DNA of 64,000 nt from Candidatus Latescibacterota bacterium. Lineage in GTDB: Bacteria > Latescibacterota > UBA2968. The stretch lies in assembly GCA_965116885.1 (NCBI GenBank), contig OZ220741.1:5312001-5376000 (forward strand), read 5' to 3'. Below, piece by piece: positions 7,013 through 37,433 of this stretch; position 1 is the stretch's first letter, and each line of letters starts with the position of its first letter. Position numbers and translations under genes: made by a program. Below the pieces are notes generated by a model. The model was not told where the DNA came from, made no database searches, and saw only the letters and a list, made by a program, of their open reading frames with translations.

Positions 7013-7072
7013 GAGATACCCCTTCCTATTGTCGATGCCAACTACGAAAAGTTTGCCTGATCCTGTACATCC

Positions 7073-8020: not shown

Positions 8021-8058
8021 GGGAACCTCCAAAAAAATAACGCCTACAACAACTCAAG

Positions 8059-8481
8059 TCAAAACGTTTGATCTTCTTCTTTTTCTTCTACACGCTCCCC
8101 ATAAGACAACTCGCACGTCCCCGTATCGCACGCCACGCGGCCTGAAAGGTAGCGATACCGCGCAATCAACGCATATCCCACCCGAAAAATGAGATTCAAA
8201 ACCGGCACGCGGTACAACCATGCAAACAGATGGAAAGGCGGCAGCCTGCGATAGATTTGATACACGGCATCCGCACCCACATAAATATCCTCTTTGCCCA
8301 CCAACAGACGCATACCCGTATTGAAATCCGACGACGCCAGCTTTGGAAAATGGGCTTCAATCCCCTGCGTCTGCCTGGGCAAATAATCAAACTGACTGCG
8401 TTTGTCTTTCTTTTTCATACGGCGAACGCTCCAGATACAAAAACGACATTCGCCGTCATATACAACAATCGGCTTTTCCAT
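8059..8481 (-). CDS. DCC family (DUF393) thiol-disulfide oxidoreductase
   Basis: N-terminal YDGECRFC, YALIARYRY; RBS ggagg. Confidence 0.9.
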   Translation of the reverse strand: MEKPIVVYDGECRFCIWSVRRMKKKDKRSQFDYLPRQTQGIEAHFPKLASSDFNTGMRLLVGKEDIYVGADAVYQIYRRLPPFHLFAWLYRVPVLNLIFRVGYALIARYRYLSGRVACDTGTCELSYGERVEEKEEDQTF

Positions 8482-8500
8482 CACGCCTCCGCGAAAAAAC

Positions 8501-9691
8501 CTAACTCCTCGGATAAAACACATCCACCAGAGTCTCCACATCATCCCATGCGCACAAAAATCGATCTTCAAATCCGCGATGGATATTGTGCTCGACCTCT
8601 GTCTCGTCGGGCAACGGGAACACAATCGTCTCGCGATCGGCCTCAATTGACGCATTCACCGCCAGACTCATCTCCTGATCCAACCGCCCCATCGCAGCAC
8701 CGTAATCCGGCTCGCGATCTTCTCGAACGGCATTGGCGATACTCAACAACTCATCTGCCACAGCCACTTGCCCTTCACTTAGCGCATAATTTGCAAATGG
8801 ATTCTCCCACCCAATTGCGCCGCCGGGCAACTCATAGCGAATCTCGCGCAACACATTTACCCCATTTACCGTTTCCGTCACGCGCACGGGTTCATAAGCC
8901 ACGCCCTGTGCACCGGTTTCCAATTCATCCTGTGGCACAACATACACATTGCCATCCACAATGCTACCCGCTGTCCCGTCAATCTCATCCATACCCGCTT
9001 GCTTGCGCCCGAGTGAACGCGCGTGAATCACATTGGAATACACCATCAGCGCGGCCACATCATTATCAAATTCCAAAAAACTCAAACTCCATCTTTCCAA
9101 CTCGTGATGTCGCTTCATGCGATCTATATGTGGAATCACGGGCGTTGTATGGCTCAACCCAATCACCTGCCTGGGATTGCCGCCAGCCAACACGCGCAAC
9201 AAACTCATCCCGTGATACCCGCCCTCGTGGCATATCCGATAGATCCGTCCAATCTCTCCAATAACATCTGATACGAGCACCTTCTTCTTCAAACGCTCAA
9301 TTGGCGCGCGATAATAATTCTCGGCAACCTCCAGATAAACGCCCGCATCTCGCGCCGCTCGAATCATCATATCTGATGCCGGTCGAGTCATAGCAATGGG
9401 CGTCTCCACAACCTGATGCACACCCGCTTGCGCCAAAAAACAGCAAATCGCATGGTGCGCCACGCCTGGCACCACCACATCGGCAACATCGATATCTTCA
9501 TTATCGACCAGGTCGCGCACACTCGTATAAGCCCTTACCCCGTGTTCTGCTGCCAAACTCTGGGCTGTTTCCTCCTCCTTATCGCAAATGGCGACAAAGT
9601 CAAAAACATCTGCCAACTGCACAATCACAGGCAAATGCGCCCCTGCGCCGCGCCGCCCAGCGCCCACAAGTGCAATTTTGAGACGATCCAT
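8501..9691 (-). CDS. Gfo/Idh/MocA family oxidoreductase
   Basis: ALVGAGRRG Rossmann motif, VETP variant of EKP, VAENY. Confidence 0.88.
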   Translation of the reverse strand: MDRLKIALVGAGRRGAGAHLPVIVQLADVFDFVAICDKEEETAQSLAAEHGVRAYTSVRDLVDNEDIDVADVVVPGVAHHAICCFLAQAGVHQVVETPIAMTRPASDMMIRAARDAGVYLEVAENYYRAPIERLKKKVLVSDVIGEIGRIYRICHEGGYHGMSLLRVLAGGNPRQVIGLSHTTPVIPHIDRMKRHHELERWSLSFLEFDNDVAALMVYSNVIHARSLGRKQAGMDEIDGTAGSIVDGNVYVVPQDELETGAQGVAYEPVRVTETVNGVNVLREIRYELPGGAIGWENPFANYALSEGQVAVADELLSIANAVREDREPDYGAAMGRLDQEMSLAVNASIEADRETIVFPLPDETEVEHNIHRGFEDRFLCAWDDVETLVDVFYPRS

Positions 9692-9821
9692 AACATCCCT
9701 CCAATAAAGTTTGTTTTCGCCATTCTGCTACCGGTCTAACATCAATCTACTTGCGGAATTTTTATCTTAACCTATCTTGGCGATAATTCAAACAATAATC
9801 AACACAAAAGAGGAGCAGGTC

Positions 9822-10238
9822 ATGTCGCAAAACAAAACCATCGGAGGTGGGGGCTTTCACCACGTTGCAATTCGCGCCCACGACTTTGACGCATCTGTAA
9901 AATTTTATACCGAAGCGATGGGATTTCAAAAAAAAATCTCCTGGGGTGAAGGCAAAAGACGCGCCATCATGCTCGACACCGGAGATGGGAATTACCTCGA
10001 AATTTTTGCCAATGGCACAGACGAACCCAAACCGGAAGGGTCCATCATCCACTTTGCACTGCGCACCAGCGATTGCGACGCCGCCATCGAACGCGCCAGA
10101 GCAGCCGGTGCCCAAATCACCGTAGAACCCAAAGACGTCGAAATTCCCAGCGAACCCCACAAAACCCCTGTACGCATCGCCTTTTGCAAAGGCCCCGATG
10201 ACGAAATCATCGAATTTTTTCAAAACGAATTGACGTAA
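9822..10238 (+). CDS. VOC/glyoxalase family protein
   Basis: FHHVAIR, LEIF, HFAL, GPDDEIIEF. Confidence 0.9.
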   Translation: MSQNKTIGGGGFHHVAIRAHDFDASVKFYTEAMGFQKKISWGEGKRRAIMLDTGDGNYLEIFANGTDEPKPEGSIIHFALRTSDCDAAIERARAAGAQITVEPKDVEIPSEPHKTPVRIAFCKGPDDEIIEFFQNELT

Positions 10239-10271
10239 TCAACTTGCATCTGCCGGGGAAAAGGAAAAATC

Positions 10272-10694
10272 ATGAACAAAATTATACCTGTTTTGTGTCT
10301 GATATTCGCAATCGCCGCATGCGGTGACGACAATCCCGCCGATTCGGGTCAACCCGTAGTCAATCAAACATTTAATCTGTCGAGTGGATCAATTGAAGAG
10401 TTTCGCTTTACCGTTGACACCGACTTACAGCAAAACGTCATCCTCCAGGGCGAATTTAGCGTTGAGAACGGCACTATTCAGATGGCTGTTATGGGCGAAG
10501 ACCAGTATCAAACCTGGATAGAAGGAGGCACGCCTACAGTGCTCTACAGCCCGGGCGAAACATCTGGAGAAACCTTTCGCTTACCCATTTACGACAGTGA
10601 CACTTACTACATCGTTTTTCGCAACGCAGGTGCAAATACCGTAACAGTCGAAGCAGAAATTTTCCTGCTCAGTACCGCTGAACCAGAGGTTTAG
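10272..10694 (+). CDS. Hypothetical lipoprotein (beta-sandwich, GOLD-like)
   Basis: Lipobox IAAC; beta-strand pattern, TYYIVFRN. Confidence 0.7.
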
Positions 10695-10780
10695 ACTACC
10701 CGGAAAAATGCCTGCCTGTGCTTATCAGATATGCGGTGTCTGAAACGCAGCATCACCCTGTTTTTAGCCCAATTTTCCGA

Positions 10781-10809
10781 TTGACGAGACAAGAAGAACA
10801 AGTTATAAT
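10781..10809 (+). promoter_or_regulatory. Sigma70-type promoter of the frd operon
   Basis: TTGACG-17 nt-TATAAT. Confidence 0.7.
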
Positions 10810-10849
10810 TATCCCTGTTCATTATCAATCACAGTTAAATGAGGTATTT

Positions 10850-12556
10850 ATGAACATCCCCAAGCACGACGTGCTCTTAGTAGGTGGAGGGGGTGCGGGG
10901 CTGCGTGCTGCAATCGCCGCATCTGAAACGTATCGTGGTGCAGATATTGGCGTAGTCTCCAAAGTCTATCCCATGCGAAGTCATACCGTCTCTGCCGAAG
11001 GTGGCACGGCAGCAGTCATGCGCGAAGACGACAATCTGGATCTACATGCTTATGACACCATCAAAGGCAGCGACTACCTCGGCGATCAGGATGTGGTCGA
11101 AGCCTTTGTCAAAGAAGCCGTTGATGAAGTCATCCAGTTAGAACACTGGGGGTGCCCCTGGAGCCGCGACGAAGACGGCCGCGTAAGCGTCCGCGCATTT
11201 GGTGGCATGAGTGTCAAACGCACGCTCTATGCCGCCGACAAAACCGGCTTCCACATGCTGCACGCCCTCTTTCAAACATCTCTCAAATACGACGCCATTA
11301 CCCGATATGACGAATGGTTTGTCACCTCATTACTCGTCGAAGATGGCAGGGTATGCGGCGTCACGGCTCTCAACATCCGATCCGGCAACATTCACGCCAT
11401 TGGCGCAAAATCCGTCATTATATGCACGGGTGGCGCGGGCAAAATTTTTCCATTTACCACCAATGCCGCTATCAAAAACGGCGACGGAATGGCTCTTGCC
11501 TACCGCATTGGCTGTCCACTAAAAGACCTCGAATTTGTACAATATCACCCCACTGGCCTGCCCGGCACGGGCATCTTAATGACCGAAGCCTCGCGGGGTG
11601 AAGGCGGCCACCTCGTCAACAGCAAAGGCGAACGCTACCTCAGCGAATACGTGCCAGGCAAAATGGAACTCGGTCCGCGCGACATCTTATCTCGCTCTTT
11701 CATTCACGAACAGCACCAGGGCAATGTCTTTGAAGGTCCCGATGGCAGCTACGTTCATCTCGACCTTCGACACCTGGGTGAAAAAGTCATCGACGAAAAA
11801 CTGCCCTTTGTGCGCGAACTCACCCGCAATTACGTCGGCATTGACCCCGTTTACGAACCCATTCCCGTGCGTCCAGTCGTCCACTACTGCATGGGCGGCG
11901 TACATACCGACATCAATGGCGCAACGCCCATCTCCGGTCTTTATGCCGCAGGCGAAGCGGCTTGTGTCAGCCTCAACGGGGCCAATCGCCTGGGGTCCAA
12001 CTCACTGACAGAATGTCTCGTCTTTGGCGCGCGTGCAGGTCAGGTAGCCGCGCAACACGCCGCCGATACAGACTTTGCAGATTCGGCCTCGATGGCCAAA
12101 ATGGCGCAAGACGAGCAAAAACGCATTGAAACCCAATTCTTTGGCAACAAAGGCAAAGAGCGCGTGGCCAATATCCGCGATGATCTCCGCAAAACCATGG
12201 AAGAAGGCGCGGGCATCTTCCGAACCGAAGACGCGCTCAAAACCACATGTGACACCATTCGCACCCTCAAAGAACGCTATGAAAATATCGGCATAGACGA
12301 CCACTCGCGCGTCTTCAATACCGATCTTGTCAACGCCCTCGAACTGGGTTACATGCTCGACGTCGCCGAAGGGCTCGCACATTCGGCCCTCTTGCGACGC
12401 GAATCCCGAGGCTCTCACGCGCGATCAGACTATGAAGAGCGCGACGACGAAAACTTCCTCAAACACTCTCTGGCCTATCAAACCGATGGCGACCCCCGCA
12501 TCGAGCACCTGCCCGTAACACTCACCCGCTGGGAACCCGAAGAACGAACCTATTAA
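10850..12556 (+). CDS. frdA: Fumarate reductase/succinate dehydrogenase flavoprotein subunit
   Basis: [16 protein letters not shown] (covalent FAD His), [29 protein letters not shown]. Confidence 0.95.
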
Positions 12557-24851: not shown

Positions 24852-25811
24852 ATGAAAATTGTTTTACACCCCCCTGTCGATGAAGACCTTTGCCAACAAG
24901 TGCGAGACACGGCCCCCAACGCCGAAGTTGTCATGGCAGATGACAAAAATGTCATTGAAGCTGTCGCAGATGCCGAAATTATATTTGGAAATTTTTCGTC
25001 TGAAATTGTCAGTGCAGCCCCCAATCTCAAATGGATTCAATCCACCAGTGCCGGCATGGACAAAGCACTGATCCCCGAAGTCGCCAACAGCGACATCACA
25101 ATATGCAATGCCAGCGGCGTCCATGCCGTTCAGGTCGCCGAACACGCCTGGGCACTCACCACTGCCCTCACGCGCGGGCTACACGTTTCTTTTCGCCATC
25201 AACTCGACCATGCCTGGACGCGTCCACCGCTCGCCGACTTATTAGAAGCCACCGTTCTCATCGTCGGATTTGGCGGCATTGGTCAATACTATGCACAACT
25301 CGCCCAGGGCTATGACGCGCGTCTGATTGCGCTGGATATCCAGGGCGGAGACAAACCCGATTACGTCGAAGCAATATGGGACATGGATCGCCTGGACGAA
25401 GGTCTGCAAATAGCCGATGTCGTATTTATCGCCGTACCGTACACACCCGAAACCGAAAAACTCATCAATGCCCGCACCCTGAGCCTGATGAAAAAAACCG
25501 CCTTTCTGGTCAACACCGCACGCGGTCCCATCGTCGATGAAGCCGCTCTGGCAGAGGGCCTCAAAAACGGAGAAATCGCCGGTGCTGGCCTGGACGTGTT
25601 TGAGAAAGAACCCCTGTCTCCCGACAGCCCGCTCTGGGACATGGAAAATGTCATCATCACCCCACACGCAGCCGGTGGATCACCCAATCGACACAACCGA
25701 ACCATTGGATTCTTCTGCCAAAATCTGAAACGCTATCAGGCGGGCGAGCCGCTCTTTAACGAAGTTGACAAATCCCTCGGATATCCAAAACGGGAACGAC
25801 GCGTCAAATGA
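24852..25811 (+). CDS. D-2-hydroxyacid dehydrogenase
   Basis: VAEH, GFGGIG, NTARG, LDVFEKEP, ITPHAAG. Confidence 0.92.
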   Translation: MKIVLHPPVDEDLCQQVRDTAPNAEVVMADDKNVIEAVADAEIIFGNFSSEIVSAAPNLKWIQSTSAGMDKALIPEVANSDITICNASGVHAVQVAEHAWALTTALTRGLHVSFRHQLDHAWTRPPLADLLEATVLIVGFGGIGQYYAQLAQGYDARLIALDIQGGDKPDYVEAIWDMDRLDEGLQIADVVFIAVPYTPETEKLINARTLSLMKKTAFLVNTARGPIVDEAALAEGLKNGEIAGAGLDVFEKEPLSPDSPLWDMENVIITPHAAGGSPNRHNRTIGFFCQNLKRYQAGEPLFNEVDKSLGYPKRERRVK

Positions 25812-27406
25812 AAAAACCCAATATCATCGTCATTCTCGTAGATGACATGGGCTATTCGGATCTCGGCTCTTATGGTGGCGAGATCCGGACGCCCAATCTG
25901 GATCGCCTATCGGCAAATGGCCTGCGATTCACGCAAAGTTACAACTCTGCCCGCTGTTGTCCTTCGCGGGCTTCGCTGCTCACGGGCCTGTATTCCCATC
26001 AGACTGGCATCGCCAATTTTACGGGAAGAGATCAAACCGCCGAACTGGGACCAGCCTATTTGGGTCGGTTAAACAACAACTGCGTAACACTGGCCGAAGT
26101 CCTCAAAACCGCAGGCTACAGCACCTATGGCGTTGGAAAATGGCACGTTGGCGATCAAGTTAAACCAACAGACCGGGGATTTGACGAATACTACGGATTC
26201 ATCAAAGGCCACAGCGCACCGCAATGGGATCCGTCTTATTATCATCGCTATCCCGAAACTCGAACACCCGAACTCTCTTTTGATGACGATGCATACTACG
26301 CAACAGAAGCATTCAACGATTACGCCGTAGAATTTATCGAACAGGCGCAACAAAAAGACAACCCCTATTTCCTCTACCTCGCCCACTCGGCTCCGCATTT
26401 TCCCTTACATGCCCCGGCAGAAACCCGCGATTCATATCTCGACATTTACCGTCGCGGTTGGGATGTCTTGCGCCGTGAACGCTACGCGCGCCAGAAAGAA
26501 TCCGGCCTGGCAACAGAAAACTGGCAATTTACACCGCGCTCACTTGTCCCCATTGAAGAAAATGATGCCATCGCAAATGGGTACAGCGGCAAACAGAATC
26601 CCGCATGGGAGGACCTCCCCCAGGATCGACAGGAAGATCTCACCTACCGCATGGCGGTCTTTGCGGCCATGATCGAGCATATCGATCGCGGTATAGGCAG
26701 AATCATTGATCGTCTGAAAGAAACAGGAGAACTGGACAACACACTCATTCTATTTACAAGTGACAACGGCGCGTGTTACGAATGGGGACCGTTTGGATTT
26801 GACGAACGCAGCAGATTGGGCGTCACCCATCTCCACACGGGCGAGGAACTCAAAAAAATCGGTGGACCGGACACCTATCACTCTGTGGGCAGCGCGTGGT
26901 CGTGCCTGAGCAACGCGCCGCTACGCATGTACAAACACTACAACCACGAAGGCGGAAATTGCAGCCCATTCATCGCCCATTGGCCCGAAGGGATTGCGCA
27001 ACCCGACCGCTGGGTTCGCACCCCCATGCACCTGTTTGACATCATGCCGACTATATGCGAAATTACCGGAGCCGAATATCCCGAAACGCACAATGGAGAA
27101 CGCATTCACCCGCAAGAAGGGACGAGCCTCGTACCCCTATTCAACGCACAGAACCTGCCCGAACGCAGCCTGTGTTTCGATCACTTTGAAGCCAGTGCCA
27201 TACGCAGGGGAAAATGGAAATTGCTGAAGGGCAACACCCGATACCCCAACAAAAATTGGGAACTCTACGACATGGAAAAAGACCGCTGTGAAACCAGCGA
27301 TCTATCAGCAGAACATCCCAAACTGGTAAAATCACTCGAACGAGAATGGATTGAATGGGCCGTGCGGGTTAAAGTACATCCCTACCATCAGGAGGTGGCA
27401 AAATGA
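25808..27406 (+). CDS. Arylsulfatase (formylglycine-type)
   Basis: PNIIVILVDDMGYSD, CCPSRASLLTG, GKWH, SDNG. Confidence 0.93.
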   Translation: MKKPNIIVILVDDMGYSDLGSYGGEIRTPNLDRLSANGLRFTQSYNSARCCPSRASLLTGLYSHQTGIANFTGRDQTAELGPAYLGRLNNNCVTLAEVLKTAGYSTYGVGKWHVGDQVKPTDRGFDEYYGFIKGHSAPQWDPSYYHRYPETRTPELSFDDDAYYATEAFNDYAVEFIEQAQQKDNPYFLYLAHSAPHFPLHAPAETRDSYLDIYRRGWDVLRRERYARQKESGLATENWQFTPRSLVPIEENDAIANGYSGKQNPAWEDLPQDRQEDLTYRMAVFAAMIEHIDRGIGRIIDRLKETGELDNTLILFTSDNGACYEWGPFGFDERSRLGVTHLHTGEELKKIGGPDTYHSVGSAWSCLSNAPLRMYKHYNHEGGNCSPFIAHWPEGIAQPDRWVRTPMHLFDIMPTICEITGAEYPETHNGERIHPQEGTSLVPLFNAQNLPERSLCFDHFEASAIRRGKWKLLKGNTRYPNKNWELYDMEKDRCETSDLSAEHPKLVKSLEREWIEWAVRVKVHPYHQEVAK

Positions 27407-28725
27407 GCATTACTCGATTCACCATGGAAGAAGTACGCTGTTTTGCCGAACGCCAGCAATTTGACATTCGTCCTCTGACTTTTTTGGTCGGAGAAAACAG
27501 TACTGGCAAGACAACAGCACTGGCGTGTTTTCAAGTATTGGCAAATTATTTGAAGAATGGAGAAGTTAATTTCGATGCAGATCCCTATTCAATGGGCATC
27601 TTTCGGGATATCGTCAGAAATAGCAGAAAAAAAGACAAATCTTTTAAGCTCGGATTTACTTTTGAAGGCGCTCCTGAAGATATCGAATATACTGTTGAAT
27701 TTGTTCAAAAGAAGGATGGACTTGAACCAGACGTTAAGTCCATAACAATAAAGTTCACTGACGGTGAACTCGTTTGCAATATTGAAAATGAAGCAACAAG
27801 GAGAAGCTTTCGTTTGACTTCCTTTGATCAAAAACGGAACCAATATCATATAAATTGTTCAGCAGATTTTTTGTATCGCTTTCCCTTCTCCTCTTTTCGT
27901 TTATATAGTTTTGCTCTTAGGGAAGAGCAATCCAAAGGTGAAAATGCATTGGCAAACTATTTAGAGCAAAAGGAAAAAAATGCTGGAGGGAGAAAATACC
28001 TAACGACGAAGGCCGATATATCTGTATTTAGCACATCACCGATTCGTTCACGCCCCAAACGGACCTATGATCCAACAAGGGAATTTAATGACCCCGAAGG
28101 AAGTGATGTGCCGATGCGATTGATGCGGACAGAAGCGACAAAAAAAGACAAATGGGAAACCTTGAAACAGCAATTGATTGAATTTGGTAGGGGGTCGGGA
28201 TTATTTCAGAACATCGAAATTCAAAACCTCGGTGGGTCTCTGGGATCTCCATTCCAACTTAAAGTCAAGGTGAGAGGTCCCAATTCCAATATCGTTGATG
28301 TCGGATACGGAGTCAGCCAAATTTTACCGATTCTGGTGCATATCTTGGATTCTGATATTTCTCGTTCGCGTTTCTATAGAAAAGTAGGAATGGATTTCTT
28401 CTTACTACAACAACCTGAAGTCCATCTGCATCCAAAGGCACAAGCCCAACTCTCTTCTTTACTATCTACATTAGCGAGCCAAGGCGGACAGTCTTTCATC
28501 GTCGAAACACATAGCGACTACATGATTGACCGCGCACGCATTGAAATTATGAAAGGCACTATCGAACCTGAAGATGTGTCTTTGATATATTTAGAACCCA
28601 AGGGACGCGTTGTCAATGTACATAATATCAGCTTTGACAATATGGGTAATATGACTGGTGTACCAGCGCATTACAGAGGATTTTTCTTAAAAGAAACTGA
28701 CCGGTTACTTGGTTTTGAGGATTAA
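27403..28725 (+). CDS. ABC-type ATPase (AAA_15/AAA_21 with DUF3696-like C-terminus), putative defence protein
   Basis: Walker A GENSTGKT, signature VGYGVSQILP, Walker B/D-loop LLQQPEVHLHP, H-loop VETHS. Confidence 0.85.
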   Translation: MSITRFTMEEVRCFAERQQFDIRPLTFLVGENSTGKTTALACFQVLANYLKNGEVNFDADPYSMGIFRDIVRNSRKKDKSFKLGFTFEGAPEDIEYTVEFVQKKDGLEPDVKSITIKFTDGELVCNIENEATRRSFRLTSFDQKRNQYHINCSADFLYRFPFSSFRLYSFALREEQSKGENALANYLEQKEKNAGGRKYLTTKADISVFSTSPIRSRPKRTYDPTREFNDPEGSDVPMRLMRTEATKKDKWETLKQQLIEFGRGSGLFQNIEIQNLGGSLGSPFQLKVKVRGPNSNIVDVGYGVSQILPILVHILDSDISRSRFYRKVGMDFFLLQQPEVHLHPKAQAQLSSLLSTLASQGGQSFIVETHSDYMIDRARIEIMKGTIEPEDVSLIYLEPKGRVVNVHNISFDNMGNMTGVPAHYRGFFLKETDRLLGFED

Positions 28726-28728
28726 ATT

Positions 28729-29217
28729 ATGTGTGCCATTCTCGATACTAATTGCTTTAATAAATTTAAGAATCCAGCCGATGAGGATATGAAGCCTGTG
28801 CGGAATTGGTTGAAAAACAAAAAGGGCAAAATAGCGTACTCCAATACCAACAAATTTGACAGGGAATGGGAGGATGGGGGAATGAAAGATCAAATGAAGG
28901 AACTAAGTCGAGCTGGTCAACTTAAACGGTTTTGCGCTAAAGAGGTAGAAAAAAAAGAGAATGAACTAGCGAATGAACAAAAAGAAGAAATAAAATCCGA
29001 TGATCTGCATATTATAGCATTAGCTATGATAGCAAATGTAAAAGTGTTAATTGTCCAAAACCTCTCTGACATCCCAAAGGAAGAAGAAAATAAAAAAAAG
29101 AGAGACTCAAGAGGCGCTGACCCAAAACTACAGGCAGATTTTAAGAATCTGGTTGGTGGCAAAGTGTACATGACAAAATCACATTCACATTTGCTAAAAA
29201 AAGATACCTGTCCTTAA
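28729..29217 (+). CDS. PIN-domain-like protein (putative RNase effector)
   Basis: AILDTN, SDDLHIIALA, DPKLQADF acidic PIN pattern. Confidence 0.7.
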   Translation: MCAILDTNCFNKFKNPADEDMKPVRNWLKNKKGKIAYSNTNKFDREWEDGGMKDQMKELSRAGQLKRFCAKEVEKKENELANEQKEEIKSDDLHIIALAMIANVKVLIVQNLSDIPKEEENKKKRDSRGADPKLQADFKNLVGGKVYMTKSHSHLLKKDTCP

Positions 29218-29255
29218 CTGAACATTCTAATTCCGGGCGTTATTTTTTCGTATTC

Positions 29256-29285
29256 TTGACCAAACGGCAAAGAAATACCTATGAT
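29256..29285 (+). promoter_or_regulatory. Putative promoter for the endonuclease gene pair
   Basis: TTGACC-18 nt-TATGAT. Confidence 0.5.
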
Positions 29286-29309
29286 AGTGCAAATTCAAGA
29301 GTTCTACTT

Positions 29310-30305
29310 ATGTCACAACAAATCAACATTTTCGGAGATAATATGCAGGATTTGGAGAGTATTCTGCTCAATGCGATTAGCCGAGAAGGAGGCAAGACTG
29401 TCAACAGAGAAATCATTTGGTTTCCCAAGCCGTCAACCGATTTAAAGGATATGAGGGATAAGTTAAAGATCGCTATGATTCAGCAGCAAGCTCTCGGATT
29501 TTTTCGGGAAAATGACGTTGCAAACAAACTGGTCAACGCCGGTGCCCTGACCAGAGGTGTCTTATCTCCTCAAGATATTATTGACCAATACCAAGGGGAA
29601 ACAACGGCAAATCGGCCACAGATTAGTAGCTTCAGGATGCAAAACAGGATATTTCGTTTCTTTGGATGGACTGAGCGAGTAGTAGATCAAGCCAACGCAT
29701 ACCGAGTAACTCAACTCGGAGAGCAGATATCGAAATTCACTGGAGATTTTCCCGGTCAGATAGGTAATCTCAATGAGCGTAATCTCGTAATCGAATCATT
29801 GATGAACTTCTCATTTTTTTCAGTAAATGATGAACTCAGATACTGGGATGGACGGTTCAGACAACGACTTTTCCTCAATATAATTCGTATGGCTTCAATC
29901 TACGGCTACATTACCAACAATGAACTGGTCGTTACAGCATTTGCTTTGAAAGATGATCGGGACCAAACACAGATTGACGAAATAGTTGACAGGCTCTACC
30001 GTCTCCATAACGAAGAAGTCACAATGCCTGAAGCCTATGCAGAAGTTAGCATTGACCCATATAATAGATCCGCTGTAAAAAGCGCCTATGATAGCCCAAA
30101 GGTCGCCCTCTCTCTTTGCAGACAAGCCGGACTTCTCGAAGCCAAAAACATTACTAATAATAATCTCTCCAAATTCTACAAACAAATGCATCAACCACGC
30201 ACCCAACTTTCCACACCCCGAGTCGCCAATTGCATCACGCCATTGGGAAAGAAAGTTTTAGACAGTGAGATAACCAAAATTAGCGTTTGGTTTGATGAGT
30301 TATGA
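29310..30305 (+). CDS. Hypothetical protein, putative DNA-recognition subunit of a Type IIS-like restriction enzyme
   Basis: Two winged-helix-like ends (YRVTQLG, ITPLGK); ATGA-coupled to a nuclease gene; next to two MTases; start could be 29343. Confidence 0.5.
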   Translation: MSQQINIFGDNMQDLESILLNAISREGGKTVNREIIWFPKPSTDLKDMRDKLKIAMIQQQALGFFRENDVANKLVNAGALTRGVLSPQDIIDQYQGETTANRPQISSFRMQNRIFRFFGWTERVVDQANAYRVTQLGEQISKFTGDFPGQIGNLNERNLVIESLMNFSFFSVNDELRYWDGRFRQRLFLNIIRMASIYGYITNNELVVTAFALKDDRDQTQIDEIVDRLYRLHNEEVTMPEAYAEVSIDPYNRSAVKSAYDSPKVALSLCRQAGLLEAKNITNNNLSKFYKQMHQPRTQLSTPRVANCITPLGKKVLDSEITKISVWFDEL

Positions 30306-31771
30306 TAAAAGAAAAAATACGCCGATGTGCATTGCTTCTTGCACTACAAGAAACAAATGAGGAAGGAATAGACTCCACCATTCTCGAAAAAGTTTTACCC
30401 GAATGGAGAGAGGACATAATAGCATTACAGAATGCTGAAATCTCCATCAACGTTGAGAATGGTATAGTATCTCTCGGCACACCTGTTGCTTTCACCCTTC
30501 ACCATTCTGTTCCTCCAGAAATCAGAAATCCTGTAAGGGACCTTCTTTATCGTATTATCGATGAGAAAGACGTTGTAAATCCAAATGAAATCAATGAATT
30601 TTTCTATCGCATCAATCCGCACTATTTGAACACCCTTCTTACATCTGACCAAAAAATAAAAAGCGAACCTCTGTACAAGACATCTGATTCATCAGCGCAA
30701 CCTACTCTGAAATGTATCCACTGCGCCGATGCTCCTTGCTATACATATGCAGAAGCAGATACATTCGGTTCAAGTGATAAATCCCCAACGCAAGTCTGTC
30801 CGGATAATCTGGTGAATAAGAAGACTGACGGTCACATATCCATTCAAGTAGAACGATGCACTGGTTGTATGCTCTGTATATTGCGCTGCCCCCTTAATGC
30901 TATCTCTTGGAAGAATGGTGTCGCCTCTAAACACGAGTATGAAGTAGATGAACCTGTTGAAAAACTCTACATTTTGCCTGAAACAAAGGCATCCCTTACA
31001 ATGGAGACATTTCAAATAATTCAGGAATTCGACCTGCCTCTTGCTTACTATGACGATATGAAGAATATACTGGACAATTTTGACAAAAAAGTTGGTCGTG
31101 TAAAATTCAATTGGAATAAAGATCAATACTATCCATTTATCCGGAATTGTTTTCGATTACTGGGACTCAATGCATTATATACAGGTTCTGGCGGGAAATT
31201 AAAACGCTCCGACATCACTATTGATGACCTATTTATGGTTGGTATTGAGGTGAAAAGTCCAGCAGAAGGCCGCATTTCTAAGGAAGCCGTGCGGCAAGCA
31301 TTTGATGCAAGTATTGAGGTGGTAAAGGACAACAAAGATGTCTATTGTGCTGCCATAGGACAAGAATTTACAAGAGGTGTACAAAAACACGCTGAGAGCT
31401 ACTACAAAAGGCACAGGATTTCAATTCCTTTAATCCCAGGTCGCTTTATTCTTTACCTTACTTTGAAACACCAGGATTTTCCGCAGAGTAAACAATACGA
31501 CCTTACCCGTCTTTTCTCACTTGTGGGTGAAGTCTGGACAGACAAGATTCAACAGTATTTTATCGAATACTTCGACATAAGAATAGCGGTACTAAAAAAA
31601 GGAGTGCCGCCTGATGAATTGATAGAAAATTGCCCTTACCAAATCAGGGAATTACTGATAGAAGGGAACTATGAGAGTGCAACGGTGCTATTAGAAGAGC
31701 AAAAAAGGGAAATTTTAGAAGAGATAGGGAGATGTTTTCCACCACCACGCCGCACTGCAAGAGGGCGTTAA
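30302..31771 (+). CDS. 4Fe-4S dicluster (ferredoxin-type) domain fused to a PD-(D/E)xK endonuclease
   Basis: CIHCADAPC...VCP and CTGCMLCILRCP, then RSDITI-x6-GIEVKS...AVRQA. Confidence 0.75.
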   Translation: MIKEKIRRCALLLALQETNEEGIDSTILEKVLPEWREDIIALQNAEISINVENGIVSLGTPVAFTLHHSVPPEIRNPVRDLLYRIIDEKDVVNPNEINEFFYRINPHYLNTLLTSDQKIKSEPLYKTSDSSAQPTLKCIHCADAPCYTYAEADTFGSSDKSPTQVCPDNLVNKKTDGHISIQVERCTGCMLCILRCPLNAISWKNGVASKHEYEVDEPVEKLYILPETKASLTMETFQIIQEFDLPLAYYDDMKNILDNFDKKVGRVKFNWNKDQYYPFIRNCFRLLGLNALYTGSGGKLKRSDITIDDLFMVGIEVKSPAEGRISKEAVRQAFDASIEVVKDNKDVYCAAIGQEFTRGVQKHAESYYKRHRISIPLIPGRFILYLTLKHQDFPQSKQYDLTRLFSLVGEVWTDKIQQYFIEYFDIRIAVLKKGVPPDELIENCPYQIRELLIEGNYESATVLLEEQKREILEEIGRCFPPPRRTARGR

Positions 31772-31781
31772 AGAGTTCTGT

Positions 31782-32588
31782 TTATTGGGATGTAAGAGGA
31801 GTTGCTAGCGACAATTGCGGTTCCTTGGTTCTCCAATCCAAAATACGCTTTTGTGAAATCTCTATGTATTGCTCGTTTAATTCATAACCGATATACCGCC
31901 TGTTGTGTATTAGTGCCGCCAAACACTCTGTGCCGCTACCGGCGAAGGGTACGAGCACAACGTCATTTTCATTTGAAAAATGTTTAATGATACGTTCGGT
32001 AAGAGCAAGTGATTTCTGTGTTGGATGATCCACTTTCTCATCACGAAAACGCCTACCGGACAGAGTGGGAAATCGCCACACATCGCCCGCAAGCCTTCCT
32101 TCTGGATGCGGCTTCCACTGTTTGCCATTTTTGGTGATTTTATGCTTCAATCGCTCCTTGCTCTTATAGGGTTCTCTGATCGGATGGTAAGTATAATCAT
32201 CCCCTTTGGAGAACCAGAGAATCGGCTCATAATGAGCTGCCAAGTTCCTTTTGTTATATCCTGCAAACCCATTCTCATAATGCCAGATTATCTGCCTCCT
32301 ATATGTGAGGCCAATCTCATACATATAACACTGAAGCCAGCACAAATGATGATGTATTCCATAAACAAAAATATTTCCACCTGGAGCTAGAACCCTCTTT
32401 GCCTCACCAATCCATTTCTTACACCAGGGCAACCATTCATCTTTTCTTTCTGTTTCTTTCCAACTGCCAAAATCCTTCGCTAAATTATAAGGCGGATCGG
32501 CAACAACCAGATGGAAAAATTCATCAGGCAGTTGTCTCATCCCTTCAATGCAATCTTGATTGTAAATCACATCAACGGGTGTGTCCAT
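31782..32588 (-). CDS. Amino-DNA methyltransferase, beta order (likely m6A)
   Basis: DPPY precedes HPTQK and VLVPFAGSGT. Confidence 0.92.
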   Translation of the reverse strand: MDTPVDVIYNQDCIEGMRQLPDEFFHLVVADPPYNLAKDFGSWKETERKDEWLPWCKKWIGEAKRVLAPGGNIFVYGIHHHLCWLQCYMYEIGLTYRRQIIWHYENGFAGYNKRNLAAHYEPILWFSKGDDYTYHPIREPYKSKERLKHKITKNGKQWKPHPEGRLAGDVWRFPTLSGRRFRDEKVDHPTQKSLALTERIIKHFSNENDVVLVPFAGSGTECLAALIHNRRYIGYELNEQYIEISQKRILDWRTKEPQLSLATPLTSQ

Positions 32589-33441
32589 TACTATTTCCTT
32601 TTTTGTTTTGCAAAATAATTATAAACTGATGATGAATATTAGGGACATAGGCATAGGGATAACCATATGGAAAAATCCGCTTATGCCTTTGATACAATAC
32701 TTTGATACCTCTCAGTTCCAAACTGTATTTTGCGAGTGCTTCAGCAAGATGGGCGTGAAACATGACATAATTGGATTTATTTCTGAAATCGCTTACAACA
32801 ACAGCCATATATTTGTCCAATTTCAATACCCGACCACAAGCGCCTAAGATCAGGCTAAGTTCTTCCAAAAATTTAGTATAATCGGATATATTACCAAGGT
32901 CCAACTCGCTATTACTGTATCTGGTATCTAGGCCATTGCTTCTTCTCTCCTGTCTCACTTTGTGGTCTTCTTTATGTAAAATATTCCAATAAGGAGGACT
33001 GGTTACCACGAAGTCAATACTATCCTCCGGTAATGTCTTGATGAGGTCCCTTGCATCACCGGTGAGAACTTGCTGTTCTTCTTTACTAGAAAAAAGATCT
33101 TTTATTTCGTTATCAAGCCTTTGCTTGGCAAGTTCAGCGTATTTAGGATTTAACTCAAATCCGATCCCCTTTCGTCTTTCAAGGGCACAGGCTTTCAAGG
33201 TTGAGCCTACTCCAACGAATGGATCTAGAACAGTGTCATCAGGTTTTGTGAAGAATCGGACCAGTCGAGCAACATCAGTAAAAGAAAATGGAGCGGGATG
33301 TTGTTTCTCAATTTGTGCATCAGGATGTTTAGCACCTAAACCTTTTTGTGTCCAGACAGACACAGTTTCTGGAATCCACTCTTTAGATGTAAGAGCGTTG
33401 AGCTTGTTGCGCGGGTCAGGAGCATTCTGATTTTCGGTCAC
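32572..33441 (-). CDS. Amino-DNA methyltransferase (likely m4C)
   Basis: HPAPF, VLDPFVGVGS followed by TSPPY; GTG start after ggaggt. Confidence 0.9.
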   Translation of the reverse strand: MTENQNAPDPRNKLNALTSKEWIPETVSVWTQKGLGAKHPDAQIEKQHPAPFSFTDVARLVRFFTKPDDTVLDPFVGVGSTLKACALERRKGIGFELNPKYAELAKQRLDNEIKDLFSSKEEQQVLTGDARDLIKTLPEDSIDFVVTSPPYWNILHKEDHKVRQERRSNGLDTRYSNSELDLGNISDYTKFLEELSLILGACGRVLKLDKYMAVVVSDFRNKSNYVMFHAHLAEALAKYSLELRGIKVLYQRHKRIFPYGYPYAYVPNIHHQFIIILQNKKGNSNGHTR

Positions 33442-34342
33442 TTTCCTCTACCTCCTTCAATAGCTTTTCTACAATCTTGCTCATTTGTTCTTCTTGCTTA
33501 TTTCTCCGAAGTTTATATATCCAATTAAATATCAGGGGGTCATTGCTACGCTTTTCGTAGATTTCATTTTGCAGATTTCGAGATTCAATTTCGAGCTGTG
33601 CATCCGATATTCTGCCATCAAGAGTATCGTCCCATAATTTGTCCACATATTCTTTTAAATCCTGTTGTCTTGATATAGAAGCATTGTGCGCCTTATATTG
33701 GTGTATTACCCAAAATATTGCCGGCATCAGAGGCAGTACGATTGCCATTAGCAATTTTTCTACAGTAAAACCTTCCCAGAGACCTAAAAGGAAGACAACT
33801 ACTATAAGACACCCAACAGCGACTGCAATGACTAGGGTATAAAACTTGCGTAATTCTGCATCCCACTGTAGATTTGCTCTCTGGCAAACGAAACGAGCTA
33901 AAGGCATTTGTAATTTCTGAACACCAACAGGATACCAATCTTTAAGTTTAATTTTTTTAGAATTTTTCCTATAATGTTTTGACGAATACTTAACGATTGT
34001 ATCTCGATCAGGATTTGGACCAACTTTCAAATCATACCATGGAAGTTCGAGAACCTTACAGTCGAATAGTTCCTTCATCTTTGCGCCTTTTTTTCGGAAC
34101 GAATCTATCCAAGATGTAAAGCCAAGACTATTAAAAAATGCTATGACAACACCATAATAAGCAGCATAAATTTTTAGGTCAAAATCCCACCAAGCAATCA
34201 GTATCAACCAAAAGGCAACAACGGGAATAGTAAGAATTATCCGCACAATTTCTAATATTTTGGCTTCTGAGTAAATCTGATGTTGGGCTGCCAGCATGTC
34301 GAGTTGTTGTTCATCATTTTGGATTTTGGGTATCTCGTTCAT
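33416..34342 (-). CDS. S-4TM (SMODS-associated 4-TM) pore-forming CBASS effector
   Basis: IQN..QLDMLAAQHQIYSEAK, two TM pairs, ELFD..VLELPW, LKDWY, CQRANLQWD..LR, IYKLRR. Confidence 0.88.
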   Translation of the reverse strand: MNEIPKIQNDEQQLDMLAAQHQIYSEAKILEIVRIILTIPVVAFWLILIAWWDFDLKIYAAYYGVVIAFFNSLGFTSWIDSFRKKGAKMKELFDCKVLELPWYDLKVGPNPDRDTIVKYSSKHYRKNSKKIKLKDWYPVGVQKLQMPLARFVCQRANLQWDAELRKFYTLVIAVAVGCLIVVVFLLGLWEGFTVEKLLMAIVLPLMPAIFWVIHQYKAHNASISRQQDLKEYVDKLWDDTLDGRISDAQLEIESRNLQNEIYEKRSNDPLIFNWIYKLRRNKQEEQMSKIVEKLLKEVEESDRKSECS

Positions 34343-34398
34343 CTGATTATCCCATTTATCCGGAAATTTGGTATGGGACTTCCCTCGCCGAGAATTGT

Positions 34399-35406
34399 TT
34401 ACCTGTAAAGTAGTATATCAAACTGTGGAAACGCTGAACCAAATATATTCCTGTATTGTGCAATAGCTTGTTTGTGGTCATTTCGAAAAGCGGAAATGTA
34501 CGCATGACAAGCATCACCTTGATGCTCTCTTAGCCTTTCTATCGTCCTTTGTCGTACATCGTCGCTGAGATATTCATCAATCGGTGGTCCCAGTCCCTTT
34601 GGGTCTGGACAAGAACGATTCATAAAGTCCGGCGCGCTCGTAAAGACTCTAAAAATACCCTCTGCATAATCTTGAATAGGATTGGTACCGAGCAATGCGA
34701 GGCACATTACCTCAACGTGGTACGAACTTAAACGGTTCCTGTTTCTGCATTTGTTCCAGTATTTGATAAACATAATAATGTGAGAAGCCATCCCATTGTG
34801 AATTTTATTCGCAGCATGGACACGCGCTTTATCCAGATCAGGATTCGTGATTTTCCAGTCTCGGATATTGTGACCCATTGGAATACAATACCGAGGGGCA
34901 TCTATAAGAATCGGCTGAATGTAGAATGCTGGCACAATATCGATGGTGAACCCCAGCGAGGATAAATGGACCGTGATAGCCTGCCCATCTCTCCCGATTT
35001 TGGAATCAGGGTACGTAAGTTTGAGCGTATCTCTAAATTTGTTCAGCACCTTCACCGAATTGAGCATGCCATCCCAATCTAAGAGGTCGTAAAGCGGATT
35101 TGGTAACTTACCTGAACTCTCGATAATGGAAGGCACAATCTGTCCATTTTCAATATAGGAGAGACCACTGCCATCCATCACCGTAAAAACATCAATATCA
35201 TCTAAGGGGCTTATCTTTGTCCAGCGCACGGCTGAGCCAATTAAAAAGTCGCGTTGGATGCGCGGAAAAGATGGATCCCGGACATTGCGGTTGGCGAGTA
35301 CCTGGCGGATATAGTTATGAGAATCAGAGGCTTTTTGCCGTTCAAATTTGCTCGGGCTGATATTGCCGCAAAATTGCCGGAAAGCGGCATCGGTAGTGCT
35401 AGGCAT
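34399..35406 (-). CDS. cGAS/DncV-like nucleotidyltransferase (CD-NTase, SMODS family)
   Basis: FLIGS-x-RxT, DDIDVF, IDIVPA, WKITNP, IKYWN, SSYHVEV, CPDP. Confidence 0.9.
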   Translation of the reverse strand: MPSTTDAAFRQFCGNISPSKFERQKASDSHNYIRQVLANRNVRDPSFPRIQRDFLIGSAVRWTKISPLDDIDVFTVMDGSGLSYIENGQIVPSIIESSGKLPNPLYDLLDWDGMLNSVKVLNKFRDTLKLTYPDSKIGRDGQAITVHLSSLGFTIDIVPAFYIQPILIDAPRYCIPMGHNIRDWKITNPDLDKARVHAANKIHNGMASHIIMFIKYWNKCRNRNRLSSYHVEVMCLALLGTNPIQDYAEGIFRVFTSAPDFMNRSCPDPKGLGPPIDEYLSDDVRQRTIERLREHQGDACHAYISAFRNDHKQAIAQYRNIFGSAFPQFDILLYR

Positions 35407-35500
35407 AGTTATACTCCTATAAGGTGGGGAGAGGTACTAATGAGTAAAGATAAGGGGAGAGAATAACTACAACCTATAGTGTAGGGAAGTAGATAGACAC

Positions 35501-35529
35501 AATTTATGGGATTGCACAGCAGTTGTCAA
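35501..35529 (-). promoter_or_regulatory. Sigma70-type promoter of the CBASS-MTase operon
   Basis: TTGACA-17 nt-TAAATT. Confidence 0.6.
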
Positions 35530-35596
35530 CCAATAAAAACTGAACAAATGGATAGGAGTTGTATCTAAGTATTTGTATATATTATCGTGTTGATAT

Positions 35597-36643
35597 TCAC
35601 TTCACTTTTTCAACAAACGGCCACATAAGATCGCTGTAGAAGCGGTGACCCGCGGCGCCGTAGTGGTGTTCTACGTGGTCGGGCACACCGGCGATCTCGT
35701 AGAGACGCGCGATGCCTTTGACTGCGCGATCGACTTCGGGCACAGGGAATAGCGTATCCTGTTTCCCATTCACAATACAGAGATGGCGCGGGGCAATAAG
35801 ACCTGTAACATCCCAAATTTCGCCAAAGCGCAAAATGCCGGGCACGCCATTGCAATCGCAATGGTGAATCAAACCACTGGTGCCCACAAGCGTACAAAAA
35901 GAACAACTTGGCACAGCAATAGTAATACGGGGATCAACCGCGGCGGCATAGCAGGTAATCACCCCACCGCCCGAATTGCCCATAACCAGAATCGTAGAGG
36001 TATCGATTTCGGGAATATCCTGTGCCCAATCAATAAGACGCATCACATCCCACACGCGCTCACCCGTTGCCGTGCGCCCGGCGAGCAAAGCATGCATGAA
36101 CTGGCTGCGGCAATCGCGGGCACCGTGGCGCTTGTTAATATCGGGAATAGCCGTAGTACTCGTACCGCGGGCAGCGGGCGCAATGGCGGCAAACCCGCGC
36201 CTGACCGCCTGAACAGCAACATCGCGGTCCTCCGTCTCGATCTTTTTTTGGTGATCGTCATCGCGCGCTTTCCCGATATACGTATCCATGCCGTATTTGT
36301 CGTGCCCGTGTGGCAAAACAGCGAGTGGAAAAGGCCCATCGCCCCTGGGTTTGAGATACCAGAACGGCAAGCCAAAACGCGGCTCGGTAGTAATCACACC
36401 GGGTTGCAACGTATAATCGCCCATATCTTGCGCTGCACCGAGTTGCACCTGAATCGTGTGATCGCCCAGAGACGCACCAATACTTTCGAGCCCCAGCATA
36501 TGCTGAAGCACCGGGCGCGCCTCCTCTTGCCATAGCAGAAAAGATTCGCGATCAGTCGCTCGACACGCGACATAGCGCAGTTCATCGGCATAAAGAGCGT
36601 CGAGATAGGTGCGGACAGCACCGCTGTGTTCAGGATGTTCCAT
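35597..36643 (-). CDS. Alpha/beta hydrolase (dienelactone hydrolase/Abhydrolase_7-like)
   Basis: PHGH, GNSGGG nucleophile, IAPR, GHRFY. Confidence 0.85.
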   Translation of the reverse strand: MEHPEHSGAVRTYLDALYADELRYVACRATDRESFLLWQEEARPVLQHMLGLESIGASLGDHTIQVQLGAAQDMGDYTLQPGVITTEPRFGLPFWYLKPRGDGPFPLAVLPHGHDKYGMDTYIGKARDDDHQKKIETEDRDVAVQAVRRGFAAIAPAARGTSTTAIPDINKRHGARDCRSQFMHALLAGRTATGERVWDVMRLIDWAQDIPEIDTSTILVMGNSGGGVITCYAAAVDPRITIAVPSCSFCTLVGTSGLIHHCDCNGVPGILRFGEIWDVTGLIAPRHLCIVNGKQDTLFPVPEVDRAVKGIARLYEIAGVPDHVEHHYGAAGHRFYSDLMWPFVEKVK

Positions 36644-36668
36644 ATTGAATAACCTTTCGAGGAAAAAA

Positions 36669-37433
36669 ATGGCAGACACACTGCGAGAAGTACTGGATTT
36701 TGCAACAGATGCCGCCTGGCAAGCCGGACGGATCACGCTACAGTATTTTCAGACCGGCGTCGAAGTAGAGGAAAAGGCGGATGAATCACCTGTAACAGCC
36801 GCAGACAAAGGAGCCGAAACAAAATTGCGGGAATTGATAGAAGCGCGTTTTCCCAATGACGGCATTGTGGGAGAAGAGCACGGAGACAAAAAAGGAACAA
36901 CCGAACGACGATGGATTTTAGACCCCATTGACGGCACAAAATCATTCGTACAAGGCGTGCCCCTCTACGGAGTAATGGTCGGCGTGGAGGTCGAGGACAA
37001 ACCCGCCGTTGGCGTCGTCCATTTTCCAGCGCTAAATGAAATGATTTGCGCCGCTCAGGGACTGGGATGCACCTGGAATGGTCGCCCCACGCGGGTATCT
37101 GACATATCGGACATTCAGGACGCGACCGTGATCTTGACCGATTTTGTGAATGGGCATGGGCGAGGTGAAGCCATGGACCGGATCTGCTCACGCGCCAAAC
37201 TCGTGCGCGGCTGGGGCGATTGTTATGGCCATATGCTCGTCGCAACCGGGCGTGCAGAAATCATGCTCGACCCCATTATGAGCGTATGGGATTGTGCCGC
37301 ACTCGCGCCCATCCTGAAAGAAGCGGGCGGCACATTCACGACGTGGAGCGGCGAGGCAACGATTTGGGGCAACGAAGCCGTAAGTACAAACGGAGCGTTA
37401 TTTGAAGATGTGATGCAATTGATTAAAGAATAA
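36669..37433 (+). CDS. hisN: Histidinol-phosphate phosphatase, inositol monophosphatase family
   Basis: SPVTAAD, GEE, WILDPIDGTKSF, GWGDCYG, WDCAA. Confidence 0.8.
   Translation: MADTLREVLDFATDAAWQAGRITLQYFQTGVEVEEKADESPVTAADKGAETKLRELIEARFPNDGIVGEEHGDKKGTTERRWILDPIDGTKSFVQGVPLYGVMVGVEVEDKPAVGVVHFPALNEMICAAQGLGCTWNGRPTRVSDISDIQDATVILTDFVNGHGRGEAMDRICSRAKLVRGWGDCYGHMLVATGRAEIMLDPIMSVWDCAALAPILKEAGGTFTTWSGEATIWGNEAVSTNGALFEDVMQLIKE

Follow-up and report, generated by a model that had tools for sequence, protein, structure and literature searches.

Introduction

Among the defence systems housed within restriction-modification (R-M) operons, TgvAB and DarTG2 sit between hsdS and hsdR. Operons of type I R-M, BREX, DISARM and Hma systems have been reported to host nested small defence systems, and the preprint concerned gives co-orientation of the embedded genes in 96.7% of cases and proposes co-regulation (10.1101/2024.01.29.577857). 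In the available portions of two further articles, TgvAB (PMC11411939) and DarTG2 together with RptR (PMC12255303) are described as R-M-embedded defence systems, and the discussion of PMC12657230 names PrrC, PARIS and retrons as guards of R-M function. The present analysis concerns a stretch of 64,000 nucleotides from Candidatus Latescibacterota bacterium (assembly GCA_965116885.1, contig OZ220741.1, positions 5,312,001 to 5,376,000 of the forward strand), referred to below as the window, in which a cyclic oligonucleotide-based antiphage signalling system (CBASS) adjoins the DNA methyltransferase (MTase, methylase) genes of an R-M system. No text on CBASS embedded in, or co-operonic with, R-M was found in the literature searched; the word CBASS is absent from the main text of the embedding preprint, and its figures and supplements, which lie outside that text, may list CBASS.

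As in the R-M-embedded systems TgvAB, DarTG2 and PrrC, the CBASS of the window is co-oriented with R-M genes, here two methylase genes, the first of which overlaps the CBASS effector gene by 26 nt. The difference lies in its position: it is not enclosed by R-M genes and is instead appended upstream of the methylase arm, with the nuclease genes convergent. Enclosure between host genes was observed in eight CBASS loci of other genomes (L028, L030, L038, L039, L040, L046, L050 and L053).

The reading preferred here, to which a probability of about 65% is assigned, is that two independent systems share a compact unit. The methylase genes would be read through from CBASS, possibly with a contribution from internal promoters, and the result would be a layered defence that is inherited or lost as one.

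The CBASS Pair and the Methylase Genes

The first gene of the minus-strand unit (34399..35406) encodes a cGAS/DncV-like nucleotidyltransferase (CD-NTase), the CBASS cyclase, of 335 aa. It was matched by Pfam SMODS (1e-16), by the PADLOC cyclase profile (8.3e-56) and by NCBIfam CBASS_cyclase_b (2e-41, below the cut-off of that family). The active site of CD-NTases is defined by the motif GS ... DxD ... D, and as read from the sequence it is intact in this protein, with G57-S58, D70-I-D72 and D156. The second gene (33416..34342, minus strand) encodes an S-4TM effector of 308 aa, which covered 291 of 291 positions of Pfam S_4TM with its residues 2-294 (7.7e-89) and matched the PADLOC 4TM effector at 6.7e-99. 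The gene is AT-rich, with a G+C content (GC) of 0.374. The names S-4TM and SMODS reportedly originate with Burroughs et al. in 2015. Scans with Pfam, PADLOC and NCBIfam profiles detected neither Cap2/Cap3 (E1/E2, JAB) nor a HORMA/TRIP13 family among the eight genes of the island that carries the unit. By its profile content, the pair is a minimal type I CBASS.

MTase-1 (32572..33441, minus strand, 289 aa) belongs to the N6_N4_Mtase family (Pfam 3.6e-25; PADLOC type II MTase 1.8e-34) and carries F75xGxG, in the form FVGVG, followed by S148-P-P-Y. Its nearest solved relative is an unnamed methylase (2zie), followed by the N4-cytosine methylases PvuII (1boo) and 8s9n; MTase-1 is thus predicted to be, and probably is, an N4-cytosine methylase. 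MTase-2 (31782..32588, minus strand, 268 aa) matched the same Pfam family at 9.9e-57 and shows the beta-class order D31-P-P-Y ... F215-A-G-S-G. Among solved structures it comes closest to M.MboIIA (3.3e-41), which methylates adenine in the type IIS system MboII, and it is probably an N6-adenine methylase. Both proteins carry the S-adenosylmethionine-binding motif and the (D/S)PPY catalytic motif, and there are two of them, as for an asymmetric site.

On the minus strand, the CD-NTase gene is followed after a 56-nt gap by the S-4TM gene, which MTase-1 overlaps by 26 nt; MTase-2 in turn overlaps MTase-1 by 17 nt. A GGAGG ribosome-binding site for MTase-1 (33451..33455, minus strand) lies within the S-4TM frame, 9 nt before the GTG start codon at 33441. 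No start codon precedes this GTG in the open frame, and MTase-1 homologues (274-333 aa) align from residues 1-12; for these two reasons the overlap with the S-4TM gene is regarded as real.

Upstream of the CD-NTase gene, inside the island, a promoter-like site (35501..35529, minus strand; TTGACA-17-TAAATT) agrees with the consensus at 10 of 12 positions. The consensus used was of the E. coli type, which may not be that of the host, and the number of sites found between 27000 and 36800 was 20, compared with 20.9 ± 4.4 in shuffled sequences. Since this count equals the expectation from shuffling, the site at 35529-35501 is treated as a candidate, and the scan, being at chance level, was not used as evidence. 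Further promoter-like sites occur inside the unit on the minus strand, among them 34182-34154 (10/12), 32903-32875 and 32587-32559. No terminator-like site was found by the scan on the minus strand between 35406 and 31782, and no unusually stable hairpin was present at the gap between the CD-NTase and S-4TM genes (z +1.22), at the S-4TM/MTase-1 junction (-0.76) or at the 10-nt convergent junction beyond MTase-2 (+0.54/+0.61).

The four genes have the layout of a single transcription unit, in which nothing is predicted to block read-through, and co-transcription of the CBASS and methylase genes is likely. An earlier, sequence-only reading of this region had described the gene calls and spacing in the same way (the 56-nt gap, the 26-nt overlap and the MTase-1 ribosome-binding site inside the effector gene), and had seen in them a minimal type I CBASS and two R-M methylases in a single transcription unit. 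All of this agreed with the present results, on the strength of the cyclase and S-4TM profiles, the catalytic residues and the lack of Cap genes in the island, of the N6_N4_Mtase assignments and the linkage of the methylases to a nuclease elsewhere, and of tight spacing with no terminator or stable hairpin at the junctions. That reading had also placed one promoter at 35529-35501; the pattern exists, with 10 of 12 positions, but the count of such sites is no better than chance.

The Methylases as Part of a Type IIS System

Convergent to the methylase genes, two plus-strand genes encode the predicted subunits of a nuclease, named p349 and p489 here. The stop codons of p489 and MTase-2 are 10 nt apart. 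The predicted DNA-recognition subunit p349 (29256..30305) matched no sequence family in Pfam, PADLOC or NCBIfam, and its assignment follows from its modelled fold and from natural fusions with p489 homologues. Its model (predicted local distance difference test, pLDDT, 83.6) matched N.BspD6I (2ewf; E 1e-5, template modelling (TM) score 0.51), FokI and the BpuJI recognition domain. A promoter-like site, TTGACC-18-TATGAT (10/12), at 29256-29285 coincides with the called TTG start of p349. Because this region is promoter-like and the first 24 residues are unconserved, with low model confidence, translation may begin at ATG 29310 and the nuclease genes may have a promoter of their own.

The predicted cleavage subunit p489 (30302..31771) consists of a winged-helix N-terminus, a ferredoxin-type 2x[4Fe-4S] insert (double CxxCxxCxxxCP; Fer4 families at 2.5e-5) and a PD-ExK core, D304...E316-V-K318. 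Residues D304, E316, V317 and K318 were invariant across 24 sequences. The top match of its AlphaFold model (pLDDT 75.5) was FokI (2fok_B, E 5e-4), with HindIII, N.BspD6I and the R.BspD6I small subunit also matched; the global TM-scores are low (0.18-0.26) because the match covers a domain. Separate recognition and PD-(D/E)xK cleavage domains were thus found in p349 and p489, respectively (fold-match E 1e-5 to 5e-4), and from the models the two proteins read as a split FokI/BspD6I-like type IIS nuclease.

The p489 family is rare: a search of 1.84 billion representatives gave 34 clusters at E<=1e-30, and word-level homologues numbered only 44. Database names label it as a hydrogenase Fe-S component. 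A role as a redox enzyme, as these names would have it, was rejected, since the PD-ExK core, the FokI-like fold and the methylase linkage speak against it. In one subgroup of p489 relatives (P0038-P0041), the cysteines have been lost. No report of an Fe-S type IIS enzyme was found in the literature searched. As a by-product, this work defines a family of restriction enzymes that is rare and carries a ferredoxin-like Fe-S domain.

Metagenome contigs were scanned with the p489 alignment, which yielded 23 loci. Homologues of p349 and p489 were always neighbours where DNA exists, and in six loci (L016, L017 and L021-L024) they were fused into one open reading frame (ORF) of 708-736 aa. An MTase-1 homologue (49-56% identity) adjoined the nuclease genes in 14 of the 23 loci, with a second N6_N4 methylase beside it in 13 of these 14; MTase-2 homologues at 49-62% identity were observed in L021-L025, the copy in L021 standing at a contig end. 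A further eight loci comprised six that were cut off or had no DNA on the relevant side and two (L005 and L007) with no methylase within 1.7-4.1 kb.

The orientation of the methylase genes relative to the nuclease genes was convergent in eight loci, divergent in five and co-directional in one. In the divergent loci (n=5), the called ORFs shared 85-344 nt of upstream DNA. The upstream neighbours of the methylases were an integrase, a serine recombinase, GmrSD, SecDF or a DpnII-like gene, and neither CD-NTase nor S-4TM was detected in any of the 23 loci by tblastn and Pfam scans of 33 flanking ORFs. Because the module recurs in 14 loci and three orientations without CBASS, it is regarded as a self-sufficient mobile unit that, outside the window, drives its own methylases.

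By their family and linkage, the methylases of the window are the modification half of a complete four-gene type IIS R-M system and not CBASS accessories. The reading of the locus is corrected accordingly: it does not define a new class of CBASS accessory proteins.

S-4TM Loci and Their R-M Neighbours in Other Genomes

One genome per species was scanned with the S-4TM alignment, and the best 80 of 107 loci were analysed. Pfam profiles were run on 137 downstream ORFs (up to 1.5 kb away) and 181 upstream ORFs (up to 3.2 kb away); eight loci had less than 500 nt of downstream DNA. Homologues of the window's R-M proteins (MTase-1, MTase-2, p349 and p489) adjoined S-4TM in none of the 80 loci, and short motif-level matches to them occurred only in L028, L031 and L085. 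The recurrence beside CD-NTase/effector pairs that marks Cap-type genes was thus not observed for the window's methylases.

R-M genes of other kinds were found beside 19 of the 80 loci, 16 of them among the 43 loci most similar to the query and 3 among the other 37. Of 72 evaluable loci, 8 had an R-M gene as the next gene downstream on the same strand. This gene was hsdR in L030, L038, L039 and L046, type III res-like in L028 and L089, hsdM in L059, and a methylase of the N6_N4 family, standing alone, in L031. The last locus consists of a cyclase, S-4TM and, after a 57-nt gap, the methylase, with a convergent Eco29kI-family nuclease; by gene content and order, it reproduces the architecture of the window with an unrelated type II system.

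CBASS was located between hsdM-hsdS and hsdR, all on one strand, in L030, L038, L039, L040, L046, L050 and L053, with L047 and L055 as a weaker case, and between mod and res of a type III operon in L028. In all, 8 to 10 of the 80 loci held embedded, co-oriented CBASS genes at spacings of about 0-30 nt. As an example, L039 carries hsdS at 5820-7145, the cyclase at 7129-8001, S-4TM at 8001-8897 and hsdR at 8923-12081; ORFs were started at the first start codon, and overlaps in the S-4TM loci may therefore be overstated. Downstream of the embedded CBASS lies hsdR or res, just as the methylase genes do in the window.

For the S-4TM type, the gene neighbourhoods indicate that CBASS is commonly packed close to R-M genes, whatever the type of R-M system. 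S-4TM CBASS is often nested with R-M (19 of 80 loci, 8 to 10 of them truly embedded), a pattern that was not found stated for CBASS in the literature searched. Several points of the sequence-only reading can be judged from these results. Its refuting condition of a linkage that does not recur fails to hold in the broad sense: R-M genes adjoin 19 of 80 S-4TM loci, and L031 repeats the order of CBASS, methylase and convergent restriction enzyme. A special tie between CBASS and the window's own methylases was not borne out: these belong to the type IIS module with the plus-strand nuclease genes at 29256-31771, the module recurs in 14 of 23 loci in three orientations with CD-NTase/S-4TM in 0 of 23, and the same methylases are beside S-4TM in 0 of 80. 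Its inference that methylase expression depends on CBASS transcription gained no support, the promoter prediction being at chance level, and nothing observed speaks specifically for its ideas of retention and guarding.

Some S-4TM loci showed other arrangements. Several carried two CD-NTase genes, placed in tandem before the effector or one on either side of it (L027, L041, L042 and L051, upstream of S-4TM; L033 and L037, downstream). In L084 (4384-10662), S-4TM without a detected CD-NTase lies between three RAMP genes and an RT-Cas1 pair, and in L083 (8001-10467) the gene after it encodes a protein that bears the palm2 domain of Cas10/Cmr2. It is possible that the S-4TM proteins of L083 and L084 are effectors of type III CRISPR or Cas10-like signalling.

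The Imported Island

The CBASS and R-M genes lie in a defence island of 8186 bp (27411..35596) between the stops of two convergent core genes, a sulfatase on the left (25808..27406, plus strand) and an alpha/beta hydrolase on the right (35597..36736, minus strand). The GC of the island is 0.407, compared with 0.526 and 0.525 in the 20-kb flanks. Contigs of four public runs were mapped on positions 25500-37000 at a likeness of at least 80%. In some of them, only 4-11 other letters separate 27410 from 35597 or 35602, and the borders of the island were set from these empty-site joints. Depth over the island was below that of the flanks in all four runs. In the same assemblies the empty site, in which the sulfatase and hydrolase stops are about 10-20 nt apart, was present at higher depth than the island, which is therefore polymorphic in natural populations.

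Single contigs diverged by about 9% span 29146-35620 (X4) and 28398-35801 (X5). The nuclease, methylase, effector and cyclase genes are thus together at the same site in diverged relatives, which points to one ancestral insertion and not to independent recurrence. A third copy (X3) is a mosaic, with a divergence of 9.1% in the R-M part, 5.6% in the effector and 1.5% in the cyclase, and this pattern suggests exchange between island variants. Protein searches are in agreement with this joint presence: S-4TM homologues (84% and 75% identity) and p489 homologues (86% and 88%) share the longest-contig sizes 89516 and 300992. In 40 related genomes (20 of the same genus and 20 further relatives), p489 was not found, and S-4TM was absent except for one weak match at 26% identity (G025). 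The island ends carry no terminal direct or inverted repeats, and no integrase, transposase or recombinase was detected among the island genes by profile scans.

A third module at 27403..29217 (plus strand) consists of an AAA ATPase of 440 aa (AAA_15/AAA_21 1.6e-21; PADLOC NsnB 1e-40 and PDC-M55A 5e-39) and a 162-aa partner, p162, with just a weak PIN-like NCBIfam match. The ATG of the ATPase overlaps the sulfatase stop (ATGA). No homologues of this module adjoined the p489 relatives in the metagenome loci, and by its gene families the pair is part of neither R-M nor CBASS. In public assemblies, the stretch with this module was covered more deeply than the remainder of the island and showed numerous internal skips, which gives it the look of a sequence that varies or occurs in other contexts.

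Discussion

Under the preferred reading, the island would hold three self-sufficient modules: a type I CBASS, a type IIS R-M system and the AAA-ATPase pair. On infection, the CD-NTase would make a cyclic nucleotide and S-4TM would then damage the membrane, resulting in abortive infection. The recognition subunit p349 and the Fe-S-bearing cleavage subunit p489 would form the nuclease, and MTase-2 (m6A) and MTase-1 (m4C) would each protect one strand of an asymmetric site. The CBASS pair appears to have been attached in head-to-tail fashion to the methylase arm of the R-M system, which would make the methylase genes the downstream half of the four-gene unit. Transcription that starts at the CBASS promoter most likely continues into them, and promoters within the AT-rich effector gene may contribute to methylase transcription. 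The benefit would be a layered defence, restriction first and abortive infection second, with shared inheritance and regulation. A physical interaction of CBASS with the methylases would not be needed, and no evidence points to biochemical coupling between them.

Several points weigh against this reading. The promoter scan with the E. coli-type consensus was at chance level, and co-transcription is deduced from gene geometry. At its other locations, the R-M module must possess a separate promoter for the methylases; in the window, S-4TM coding DNA runs right up to the MTase-1 start codon, and a methylase promoter that had been kept would have to lie inside coding sequence, which leaves room for a true dependence on the CBASS promoter. 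The tight same-orientation packing in 8 to 10 type I and type III operons could also reflect a functional link.

How the methylase genes are transcribed divides two of the alternatives. If they were made only from the CBASS promoter, any deletion that took out this promoter would lower methylation while the nuclease persisted, and the resulting cell death would keep CBASS in place. The start codon and Shine-Dalgarno sequence of MTase-1 inside the S-4TM gene fit such an addiction, as do the 56-nt gap as the sole intergenic DNA down to MTase-2, the lack of a predicted terminator, the promoter-like site of the nuclease genes at 29256-29285 and the continued company of CBASS and R-M genes in copies diverged by about 9%. 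We consider strict dependence rather unlikely, given the internal promoter-like sites at 34182-34154 (10/12), 32903-32875 and 32587-32559, the AT-rich effector gene (GC 0.374), where promoters arise easily, and the same R-M module without CBASS in 14 other loci. In addition, the whole island is gained and lost as one piece at the empty site; partial deletions are therefore not the observed route of loss. The opposite view, that the two systems are mere neighbours, holds that the methylases have their own internal promoter, that CBASS transcripts end earlier and that the overlap has no regulatory meaning. Internal promoter-like sites do exist and the R-M modules elsewhere are autonomous, but neither a terminator-like site nor a stable hairpin was found on the minus strand from 35406 to 31782, and the overlaps of 26 and 17 nt leave a terminator no room between the genes. 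This view is judged distinctly unlikely.

The other alternatives give CBASS and the methylases a common function. PrrC plays the role of a guard for a type I enzyme, and a CBASS acting likewise would monitor the adjacent restriction system and fire when a phage blocks restriction or methylation. R-M genes beside 19 of 80 S-4TM loci, same-strand CBASS between hsdS and hsdR or mod and res in 8 to 10 of them with gaps of about 0-30 nt, and L031, which repeats the window's architecture with an Eco29kI-family system, are what such a guard would lead one to expect, and R-M guards are an established class according to the discussion of PMC12657230 (PrrC, PARIS, retrons). Guarding is nevertheless highly unlikely here. 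Four unrelated kinds of R-M system (type I, II, III and IIG) occur as partners, which makes a specific protein contact improbable; 61 of the 80 S-4TM loci have no R-M neighbour, and the R-M module of the window stands without CBASS elsewhere (0 of 23). Embedding of this kind in R-M operons is, moreover, seen for many unrelated defence genes, as far as the main text of one source and the available parts of two others show (10.1101/2024.01.29.577857, PMC11411939, PMC12255303).

A more far-reaching proposal combines these ideas: the CD-NTase/S-4TM pair would be a cassette riding in R-M units of any type (I, II or III), serving in the window as the sole methylase promoter, locked in by addiction and acting as a PrrC-like guard through its cyclic nucleotide. 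CBASS would then be a back-up that fires when a phage disables restriction. We regard this as unlikely. Almost certainly wrong is the idea that the methylases are Cap-like accessories or orphan regulators of CBASS and not R-M enzymes. Only their position in the CBASS unit speaks for it; of 23 loci, 14 have their homologues beside the p349/p489 nuclease and none has them beside CBASS, homologues of the R-M module are absent from all 80 S-4TM loci, and MTase-2 is nearest to M.MboIIA.

Two independent systems in one compact unit is accordingly the reading favoured here. The locus offers a natural test case for the effects of two defence systems on one transcript, including co-regulation, addiction and guarding, and it comes with an empty-site control and diverged copies.

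Comparison with Known Systems

As in type I CBASS with a 4TM effector, the locus is a two-gene cyclase-effector pair with the catalytic GS/DxD/D residues and a full-length S_4TM match. It differs in that two DNA methylase genes of another system lie directly downstream with overlapping frames. The cyclase of the window, in its 335-aa form, shares only 20-31% identity with cyclases adjoining other S-4TM genes.

The R-M module resembles the type IIS systems MboII, FokI and R.BspD6I in its two N6_N4 methylases, one with DPPY and one with SPPY, of which MTase-2 is nearest to M.MboIIA. The fold of p349 corresponds to the recognition domains of N.BspD6I, FokI and BpuJI, that of p489 to FokI and BspD6I, and the nuclease is made of two polypeptides, as R.BspD6I is. 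Unlike in the known type IIS systems, the split runs between the recognition and cleavage parts, which are fused in 6 of 23 relatives, and a ferredoxin-type 2x[4Fe-4S] insert is present in the cleavage subunit. Taken as a whole, the arrangement is a new example of the known nesting of defence systems with restriction systems and not a new mechanism.

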